Shown piece by piece: positions 41,757 through 42,908 of a stretch of 64,000 nt of DNA (the stretch's first letter is position 1; every line of letters begins with the position of its first letter). Origin of the DNA: an uncultured Dehalococcoidia bacterium (GTDB taxonomy: Bacteria > Chloroflexota > Dehalococcoidia > Lucifugimonadales > UBA826); contig CAYMZR010000001.1 of assembly GCA_964394975.1 (NCBI GenBank), forward strand, positions 12 through 64,011, written 5' to 3'. Both the position numbers and the translations under genes were made by a program. Under the pieces are notes generated by a model that worked only from the letters and a program-made list of their open reading frames with translations, did not search any database and had not been told where the DNA came from.

Positions 41757-42908
41757 ATGAAACGGACAGCTTATTTTTCGATAGTTCTATTCTTCTCAGT
41801 GATGGTTTCTGCATGTACAGAAATAAATGAAACAGAACGTGCACCTACAGTCGAAAGAAAGGTAGTGGAGACACAGGCATCTGGAAAAAGCGTTTCTCGA
41901 GTTACTCCTATTCCGAGTAAACCCACAAACCAAACACCAAGAGAAACCTCAAGGGTTCTACCCGACTATTCCGGGTTAAATGACCCTCAAGTCGAACAGC
42001 AGTTTATGTCTTTTGAAGCCCAACTGGATTATCCGATCTCCAATCCGAAGTCAGTAGACGAATGGATTGATATGATTAGCCATGATAGCAACTCACTTTT
42101 CTTGCCGGAGTTACCTGATTGCAGGGGAAGCAAGGTTCGTAAATGTTTTGACGAACTGATGCCATTAGTTGAAAGGTACCAATTCGGGCCAGGTGGGACT
42201 TTTGCAACGAAAATACCTCCTTCTGACGCCTGCACCATAATGAATTATGCGTATGGTATTGTGAAAATTTATGGCGAACCACAAAATGAAGAATATCCTG
42301 AAATAAATTCCAATTTCGAAACGATGGTCAGATTCAACTTTATTAATGAAGGAGAGCGCGATCGTTTTCGCTGGGCCTTTTCCCACAGAAATCATTGGGA
42401 CTATTTAGTTCACTGTGTAACACCAAGAGAAACCTCAAGGGTTCTACCCGACTATTCCGGGTTAAATGACCCTCAAGTCGAACAGCAGTTTATGTCTTTT
42501 GAAGCCCAACTGGATTATCCGATCTCCAATCCGAAGTCAGTAGACGAATGGATTGATATGATTAGCCATGATAGCAACTCACTTTTCTTGCCGGAGTTAC
42601 CTGATTGCAGGGGAAGCAAGGTTCGTAAATGTTTTGACGAACTGATGCCATTAGTTGAAAGGTACCAATTCGGGCCAGGTGGGACTTTTGCAACGAAAAT
42701 ACCTCCTTCTGACGCCTGCACCATAATGAATTATGCGTATGGTATTGTGAAAATTTATGGCGAACCACAAAATGAAGAATATCCTGAAATAAATTCCAAT
42801 TTCGAAACGATGGTCAGATTCAACTTTATTAATGAAGATGAACTGATAAATTTTCGTGGGGCCTTTCACCACAGAAATCATTGGGACTATTCACCATATT
42901 GTCTTTAG
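41757..42908 (+). CDS. Putative lipoprotein made of a leader plus two tandem 162-aa Cys-containing modules
   Basis: Signal peptide with lipobox-like VSAC (MKRTAYFSIVLFFSVMVSAC). 59 + 162 + 162 aa. Each module has 4 Cys. Confidence 0.7.
   Translation: MKRTAYFSIVLFFSVMVSACTEINETERAPTVERKVVETQASGKSVSRVTPIPSKPTNQTPRETSRVLPDYSGLNDPQVEQQFMSFEAQLDYPISNPKSVDEWIDMISHDSNSLFLPELPDCRGSKVRKCFDELMPLVERYQFGPGGTFATKIPPSDACTIMNYAYGIVKIYGEPQNEEYPEINSNFETMVRFNFINEGERDRFRWAFSHRNHWDYLVHCVTPRETSRVLPDYSGLNDPQVEQQFMSFEAQLDYPISNPKSVDEWIDMISHDSNSLFLPELPDCRGSKVRKCFDELMPLVERYQFGPGGTFATKIPPSDACTIMNYAYGIVKIYGEPQNEEYPEINSNFETMVRFNFINEDELINFRGAFHHRNHWDYSPYCL
41933..42904 (+). repeat. In-frame tandem direct repeat, 2 x 486 bp; the first 419 bp of each unit are identical
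   Basis: 41933-42351 equals 42419-42837 by my base-by-base reading. The ORF track independently shows identical antisense ORFs offset by exactly 486 bp (42029..42238 versus 42515..42724). The last ~67 bp of each unit are diverged. Confidence 0.95.

Follow-up and report, generated by a model that had tools for sequence, protein, structure and literature searches.

A gene for a predicted lipoprotein of 383 amino acids (aa) lies in the 64,000-nucleotide stretch analysed here (hereafter the window; positions 12 to 64,011 of contig CAYMZR010000001.1 in assembly GCA_964394975.1, from an uncultured Dehalococcoidia bacterium). It contains two tandem, in-frame copies of a 162-aa module, and these are identical over 419 nucleotides (nt) and then diverge abruptly over the last 67 nt of the 486-nt unit. 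The explanation that we favour, with a probability of about 0.7, is an old duplication whose copies have been homogenised by recombination, within a putative envelope protein that would be under diversifying selection. The parts of the gene on which the argument depends are as follows.

41757..42908, + strand: lipoprotein gene, 383 aa, from the list of open reading frames (ORFs); the family has no assignable function
41757..41816, + strand: signal peptide with lipobox (MKRTAYFSIVLFFSVMVSA followed by C), read by eye from the sequence; Cys20 is the predicted lipidation site
41817..41933, + strand: linker of 39 aa, rich in Thr, Pro, Lys and Glu, from the lipid anchor to module 1
41934..42419, + strand: module 1, 162 aa with 4 Cys, in frame
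42420..42905, + strand: module 2, 162 aa with 4 Cys, followed by the stop codon at 42906-42908
41933..42351, + strand: homogenised tract, copy 1, 419 nt, from self-comparison
42419..42837, + strand: homogenised tract, copy 2, 419 nt, from self-comparison
42352..42418, + strand: tail of module 1 (GERDRFRWAFSHRNHWDYLVHCV), not homogenised, reaching the internal junction
42838..42904, + strand: tail of module 2 (DELINFRGAFHHRNHWDYSPYCL), forming the C-terminus of the protein
42180..42220, + strand: loop cassette of module 1 (QFGPGGTFATK type), 41 nt, at which k-mer graphs branch
42666..42706, + strand: loop cassette of module 2, 41 nt; in the metagenome runs X6 and X7 module 1 carries a P0009-type cassette instead

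Comparison of the window with itself at an offset of 486 revealed uninterrupted identity between 41933-42351 and 42419-42837, and a repeat search found the same pair. All 22 differences between unit 1 and unit 2 fall within the last 67 of the 486 positions, and the chance of such an arrangement under a uniform spread is (67/486)^22, or about 1e-19; seven of the 22 are synonymous. At the divergence seen between the two modules of another allele, L001 (51 per 477 nt), the 419 nt should contain about 45 differences, and none was observed. Given that the proportion of synonymous changes (pS) among alleles is 0.26-0.43, purifying selection cannot explain the count of zero synonymous changes over about 84 synonymous sites within the window's modules, while recombination between modules can. 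The linker has no homology to the end of module 1 and thus marks the left edge of the repeat, and the tail of module 2 equals that of a one-module allele (L010/P0009) at 22 of 22 informative sites. An earlier note on this DNA, made by a model from the sequence alone, had described the identical tracts with a diverged remainder, as well as a protein with a 59-aa leader and linker, two 162-aa modules, two tail peptides and four Cys per module, and the exact comparison agrees with it on every one of these points.

The relatives of the gene have either two modules or, in forms of about 220 aa, only one. Two-module alleles are P0002/L007, P0003/L014, P0004/L001-6 and L015, P0006/L008-9, and L017, and P0022 and P0027 are fragments of such forms. 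These alleles (P0002, P0003, P0004, P0006 and L017) differ in the sample and assembler from which they were obtained and in their genomic context, with P0004 by itself occurring on 11 contigs from different samples and assemblers, and all have the same junction, in which ...WDY-L[VL]HC[VQ] is followed by [TK]P[RK].... The comparison covered six two-module alleles, and in every one of them the last five codons of a module differ by position, being LVHCV-like at the internal site and S[EPN][YH]CL at the C-terminus. The shared junction together with these position-specific codons argues for a single old duplication.

The extent of identity between the two modules is on the other hand specific to the lineage. 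Against 0 differences in 419 nt followed by 22 in 67 nt in the window, L007, which represents the same locus with flanks 90.6% identical, has 0 differences in 409 nt followed by 22. L008 and L009, identical to each other and obtained from two samples, have a perfect run of 318 nt, and their module 2 has lost 45 nt through a deletion and gained 18 nt through an insertion. L017 shows 25 scattered differences and tails that are identical up to the last five codons, and in L001 and L014 there are 51-54 differences plus a 9-nt indel in the loop, so that module bodies of this type are about 10% diverged. The homogenised bodies of the window, L007 and L008 differ between genomes by 10-25%, and a module thus resembles its partner in the same genome more closely than its positional counterpart in another genome, as expected under concerted evolution. 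The pairing of body and tail types found in one-module alleles recurs in module 2 of the window and in module 1 of L007, which suggests that module 2 overwrote module 1 in the former and that overwriting went in the opposite direction in the latter. Taken together, the sequences are best described as a case of patchy concerted evolution by gene conversion or unequal crossing-over, as the earlier note had proposed for an older duplication.

The same locus is also variable in the number of modules. Where the flanks are 83-93% identical to those of the window, two modules are present in the window, L007 and L017 and one module in L010, L011, L013 and L018. The one-module allele L016 shares its genomic context with L001, and its leader has 0 differences from that of L001 in 177 nt. 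Along the single module of L016, the first 6 informative sites agree with module 1 of L001 and the 54 that follow agree with its module 2, and no change is private to L016. L016 is thus an exact single-crossover deletion product of an L001-type two-module allele, the crossover being placed inside a shared 94-nt stretch. Both the suggestion that copy number varies in the population and the proposed comparison of module number among related genomes have in this way received a positive answer.

Each module further contains a hypervariable loop between the motifs CFDxLxP and IPxxDAC, for which seven discrete cassettes of different lengths are found in the family. The cassettes vary between strains and sometimes between the two modules of one gene, and different cassettes coexist within single samples. 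The pooled ratio of nonsynonymous to synonymous changes (pN/pS) is 0.70 in the loop versus 0.29-0.40 in the rest of the module, and each allele is a mosaic drawn from a small set of segment types. From strain to strain the lipoprotein gene is 74-88% identical and the upstream enolase-family gene 96-99%, so the former appears as a local divergence hotspot beside a conserved neighbour. Two possible sources of loop variation were rejected. A silent-cassette donor within 64 kb is excluded, as the window holds no other copy of any part of the gene. A diversity-generating retroelement is not indicated, given that no template repeat occurs in the 64 kb and that the loop variants are discrete cassettes with indels rather than A-site substitutions, although no scan for a reverse transcriptase was made.

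These observations show that a single, old tandem duplication of a 162-aa ectodomain module was followed by homologous recombination between the modules, which has repeatedly overwritten one module by the other, either by gene conversion or by unequal crossing-over via one- and three-module intermediates. The tract in the window runs from the left homology edge (41933/42419) to 42351/42837 and stops where the tails become too unlike to keep pairing, so that the sharp right boundary is the end of a recombination tract and the left boundary simply the edge of homology. The same recombination deletes a module and thereby yields one-module alleles, and the loop cassette is swapped by exchange with other strains.

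The protein is exported and is probably anchored by a lipid. Its signal peptide of 20 aa (MKR-TAYFSIVLFFSVM-VSA-C20) has, by eye, the positively charged n-region, hydrophobic h-region and lipobox of a lipoprotein, and the lipobox VS[AS]C is conserved across all full-length relatives; similarity of the N-terminus to a lipoprotein model is weak and sub-threshold (NF033169, E-value 0.07). Lipidation of Cys20 is predicted from the lipobox. The four Cys of each module are invariant across the family, which suggests that the modules fold independently and that each contains two disulfides.

Among 5.8 billion proteins searched, only 26 relatives came up, all from marine metagenomes, and one of these, P0004, is labelled as deriving from a Chloroflexota metagenome-assembled genome (MAG). 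In total about 30 relatives were collected, every one of them from a marine metagenome or a Dehalococcoidia MAG, and when 1.84 billion cluster representatives were searched with a profile no further true member emerged; P0029 was discarded as a spurious match to a eukaryotic kinase-repeat protein. The only match among GTDB species representatives is the MAG Dehalococcoidia bacterium UBA7891, 93% identical over 8.2 kb, whose contig ends inside the loop of the lipoprotein gene, and an exact protein look-up gave no record for the window's own 383-aa product. The family is thus confined to a narrow clade of marine, SAR202-like Dehalococcoidia. Searches of Pfam, NCBIfam, PHROGs, PADLOC and the PDB (by profile) gave no family match, in agreement with the earlier view that the modules belong to no recognisable family. 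A structural check suggested at the same time was also carried out, in the form of the PDB profile search and an AlphaFold2 model built on a 20-sequence alignment. The protein is predicted with low confidence to be all-helical. No relatives occur in GenBank phages or IMG/VR, and a phage origin was rejected on this ground. One further candidate, P0028 (103 aa), was set aside as a chimera. In it, the leader and linker of the lipoprotein, up to residue 48, are joined to what appears to be the C-terminal winged-helix part of an OmpR-type response regulator, and either a chimeric contig or a rearranged allele is the probable explanation.

Given that a perfect repeat may arise in the assembly or by a recent event, public metagenome runs were examined as k=31 contigs with depths rather than as raw reads. 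Run X1 contains 0.96 of the window's sampled words, the most of any run, and its flanks have depths of 24.5-26.3x (24.5x for the upstream contig, which ends 30 nt into the repeat, and 26.3x for tail 2 with the downstream unitig). A junction unitig of 127 nt (42322-42448), which starts in the last part of the module 1 body, takes in all of tail 1 and reaches 30 nt into module 2, has a depth of 26.2x, while the unitigs of the repeat body reach 56x (42419-42665) and 55.4x (42707-42837) with no alternative letters. A junction at single-copy depth and a body at about twice that depth imply that the junction is real and that the body is present twice per genome. It is therefore exceedingly improbable that the real gene has a single module and that the second is an artefact of a repeat or strain graph, an assembly duplication which the earlier note had considered. 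One-module alleles do exist at the same locus in related strains, but the junction is in frame, is conserved in distant alleles and recurs in independent runs: the unitig is found with 0 differences in X1, X2 and X23, and in X5, X6 and X7, which stem from other studies, contigs lead from the body through tail 1 into the start of the next module, with 0 differences in tail 1 and one change (42447 C>T) just inside module 2. The coverage ratio proposed as a check, here taken from the k-mer contigs, thus speaks for two modules. A very recent de novo duplication of 486 bp, followed by fast divergence or replacement of one tail, would fit the zero differences over 419 nt and is nevertheless highly improbable: the last 67 nt, with their 22 differences (7 of them synonymous), would have been left identical too, and the same junction and last five codons are found in alleles that are only 59-81% identical and lie in other genomic contexts. 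More difficult to dismiss, though still rather unlikely, is a collapsed or mis-phased assembly, in which two real modules differ at least in the loop cassette and the same path was threaded through both, so that part of the perfect identity would be a consensus artefact. In X6 and X7 one contig joins a P0009-type loop (DYKDFGANYS) and 7 substitutions to tail 1, and the window-type loop is also present, which means that the two modules differ in that population; moreover, the public MAG contigs L012 and L020 end inside the gene, and the loop depth in X1 discussed below fits the same idea. Against this stand the body unitigs of X1, which have no alternative letters at twice the flank depth; for no fewer than 378 of the 419 nt the identity of the two copies is therefore genuine. 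X2 contains a single unbranched loop path from which both tails leave, although a bubble of 7 single-nucleotide polymorphisms was retained elsewhere in the repeat, and this supports the window as assembled and the identity of both modules through the loop. Three other independently assembled lineages, with different sequences, show the same pattern. The possibility of a collapsed consensus, also raised earlier, thus retains some ground for the loop and loses it for most of the tract.

A different function for the protein has also to be weighed, since the gene lies between two genes of the enolase superfamily (MR_MLE), as follows.

40496..41656, + strand: upstream neighbour, enolase superfamily (MR_MLE), Pfam match; context only
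42995..44140, - strand: convergent downstream neighbour, enolase superfamily (MR_MLE), Pfam match; context only
17530-18615, 36931-38214, 40496-41656, 42995-44140 and 56215-57408: the five MR_MLE paralogs of the window

The earlier note took these neighbours as a hint of a modular extracytoplasmic binding protein, and one may imagine a ligand-binding or accessory protein for the adjacent enzymes or for a transporter, whose loops would answer to substrates rather than to escape from predators. The two MR_MLE genes flank the lipoprotein gene here and in the strains sharing the locus, solute-binding proteins of bacteria without an outer membrane are likewise lipid-anchored, and the conserved residues could form a pocket. 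However, homology to a second group of alleles (leader MKQIAYF...) covers only 41724-42928, which is the gene with 33 nt upstream and 20 nt downstream, and the alleles of this group adjoin QueF and SnoaL genes, or a cNMP-binding gene, or an SDR gene. The lipoprotein gene is thus found in at least four unrelated genomic contexts, and for this reason the enolase neighbours are not a conserved partnership. MR_MLE paralogs account for 5 of the 45 ORFs of at least 200 aa in the window, and in SAR202 groups I and II their expansion extends over the whole genome (PMC6946804). Since this expansion is a reported hallmark of those groups, the five paralogs also make a SAR202-like organism a reasonable inference. 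No ABC or TRAP transporter gene adjoins the lipoprotein gene, and no solute-binding family was matched in Pfam or NCBIfam even at an E-value of 10, nor did the low-confidence all-helical model find a PDB match. A role in binding is consequently quite unlikely, and the argument from the neighbours was not upheld.

We return to the reading as an exposed envelope protein under diversifying selection, for instance a phage recognition target, which as a statement on function we put forward tentatively and would give about half the chance of its being wrong. Such selection would probably be frequency-dependent, recognition by phages or grazers being an example, and what varies on the exposed protein would be the number of modules and the loop cassette. 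Several points weigh against the favoured explanation and should be considered with it. The window-type loop (42180-42220 / 42666-42706) in X1 has a depth of 18.2x compared with 56x in the rest of the repeat, or about one third, so another loop allele coexists in that run, and the phase of the loops in the window's source genome is supported only indirectly, by k-mer contigs. The overall pN/pS of about 0.3 indicates mainly purifying selection, and the value of 0.70 for the loop is not above 1. The functional part of the explanation is drawn solely from the lipobox, the Cys pattern and the pattern of diversity. The structure model is poor (mean pLDDT 60.8), and a Foldseek search against the PDB gave no fold match (best E-value 1.2). 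PHROGs, PADLOC, GenBank phages and IMG/VR provided no link to phage or defence. Finally, gene conversion and unequal crossing-over are indistinguishable with the present data.

One may go further and speculate that the modules and discrete cassettes constitute a built-in variation system, in which recombination, between modules and with alleles acquired from other strains, would rapidly change or double the exposed loop of a major envelope lipoprotein and add or remove a module under phage-driven, frequency-dependent selection. We regard this extension as improbable on the present evidence; if true, the family would provide SAR202-type Dehalococcoidia with their first identified candidate for a variable surface antigen or phage receptor.

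Homogenisation of repeats in surface proteins is a well-known phenomenon, which is encountered here in a family of no assignable function and leaves existing concepts unchanged. The alpha C/Rib (alpha-like) proteins of group B Streptococcus and the Vlp/Vsa lipoproteins of Mycoplasma are surface proteins, often lipid-anchored, with in-frame repeats of hundreds of nucleotides that are kept identical by intragenic recombination; the number of repeats varies by recombinational deletion, and the edges of the arrays escape homogenisation. The likeness of the present gene to these systems lies in repeat dynamics only. There is no relationship in sequence or domains, with neither Rib nor any other Pfam domain present, and one or two modules are seen instead of long arrays. 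The host is moreover free-living in the ocean, so that immune evasion is not the driver, and each module carries a discrete hypervariable loop cassette. The tufA/tufB genes and rRNA operons undergo concerted evolution by gene conversion with sharp tract ends and unconverted flanking segments. As in those cases, copies within a genome are identical or nearly so and orthologues differ between genomes, but the copies here are adjacent modules in one reading frame, and recombination therefore also alters the length of the protein. In abundant marine bacteria, genes for exposed envelope structures vary in 'metagenomic islands', which the constant-diversity model attributes to phages. The lipoprotein gene resembles such genes in being a divergence hotspot beside conserved neighbours, in its mosaic alleles and coexisting variants and in the breaks of assemblies, yet it is a single small gene and not an island for glycosylation or O-antigen, and an interaction with phages is only hypothesised here.

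The gene offers a clean natural case of intragenic concerted evolution in an uncultivated and globally abundant lineage of bacterioplankton, and a single family displays all stages, with modules that are diverged, partly homogenised, fully homogenised or deleted by crossover. To our knowledge, almost nothing is known of the surface biology of SAR202-like bacteria. The lineage-restricted protein, probably of the envelope, is a usable marker of strain-level diversity, since several of its loop cassettes can be present together in one seawater sample, and it is also a candidate for recognition by phages or grazers. There is also a practical caution, in that public MAG contigs break at the lipoprotein gene and may be mis-phased there. 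L012 (DLRJ01000052.1) ends at the window equivalent of 42179 and L020 (PVBE011694321.1) at about 42092, each stopping right at the hypervariable loop or shortly ahead of it; short-read assembly is evidently interrupted by the repeat and by the polymorphism of the loop.

Upstream of the gene lies a conserved motif, and its position is as follows.

41724..41750, + strand: upstream motif CACACAGAATTTTGATTTATTTATAAT, conserved in relatives from other genomic contexts

Homology with relatives from other contexts begins exactly at this motif, at 41724. The motif is unique within the window, where 0 matches are expected by chance, and has the form GCCACACA..TTTTGAAT..TATAAT, with TATAAT ending 6 nt 5' of the ATG. 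Because of this short distance and because no Shine-Dalgarno sequence precedes the lipoprotein ATG (many other genes of the window have one), the motif suggests a candidate promoter and a leaderless mRNA. A scan for terminators and sigma-70 promoters around the gene found nothing above the count in shuffled sequence. Metatranscriptomes contributed only a few low-depth fragments, one identical to 42717-42872 and one crossing the junction of another allele, which are weak evidence that the gene is transcribed and do not address its 5' end.

In L001 (5964-5984 and 7228-7248) and L008 (1257-1287 and 2506-2536), the beginning of the motif is found again, imperfectly copied, about 65 nt past the stop codon, so that the gene is bracketed there by direct repeats of 21-31 nt; in the window only the upstream copy (41724-41756) is present. 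The bracketing repeats could be the scar of a cassette insertion, or the downstream one could be the promoter that remains of a second gene copy since lost.

It is typical of genomic islands that variable genes lie close to tRNAs. The window has tRNA-Gly(CCC) at 38246-38320 (- strand) and tRNA-Ile(GAT) at 39812-39888 (+ strand), 2-3.5 kb upstream of the lipoprotein gene, and the ORFs around L014 suggest a tRNA just downstream of its lipoprotein copy. Between a cupin gene and tRNA-Ile, a Cys-rich ORF of 116 aa (39339-39689, - strand) has a zinc-ribbon-like CxxC...CxxC pattern and no Pfam match. In comparison with L017, the region of an AIR-synthase-related gene (AIRS/AIRS_C domain) at 44200-45400 is only 70-81% identical, and for the same pair 40630-41530 is 96-99% identical; such strongly mosaic divergence points to frequent recombination across the region, beyond the lipoprotein gene. 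Downstream of the gene, the 34 nt at 42947-42980 are matched with 2 differences by other contigs in X1, X2, X5, X6 and X25 that continue into unrelated sequence, and this segment is a short element repeated elsewhere in these metagenomes.

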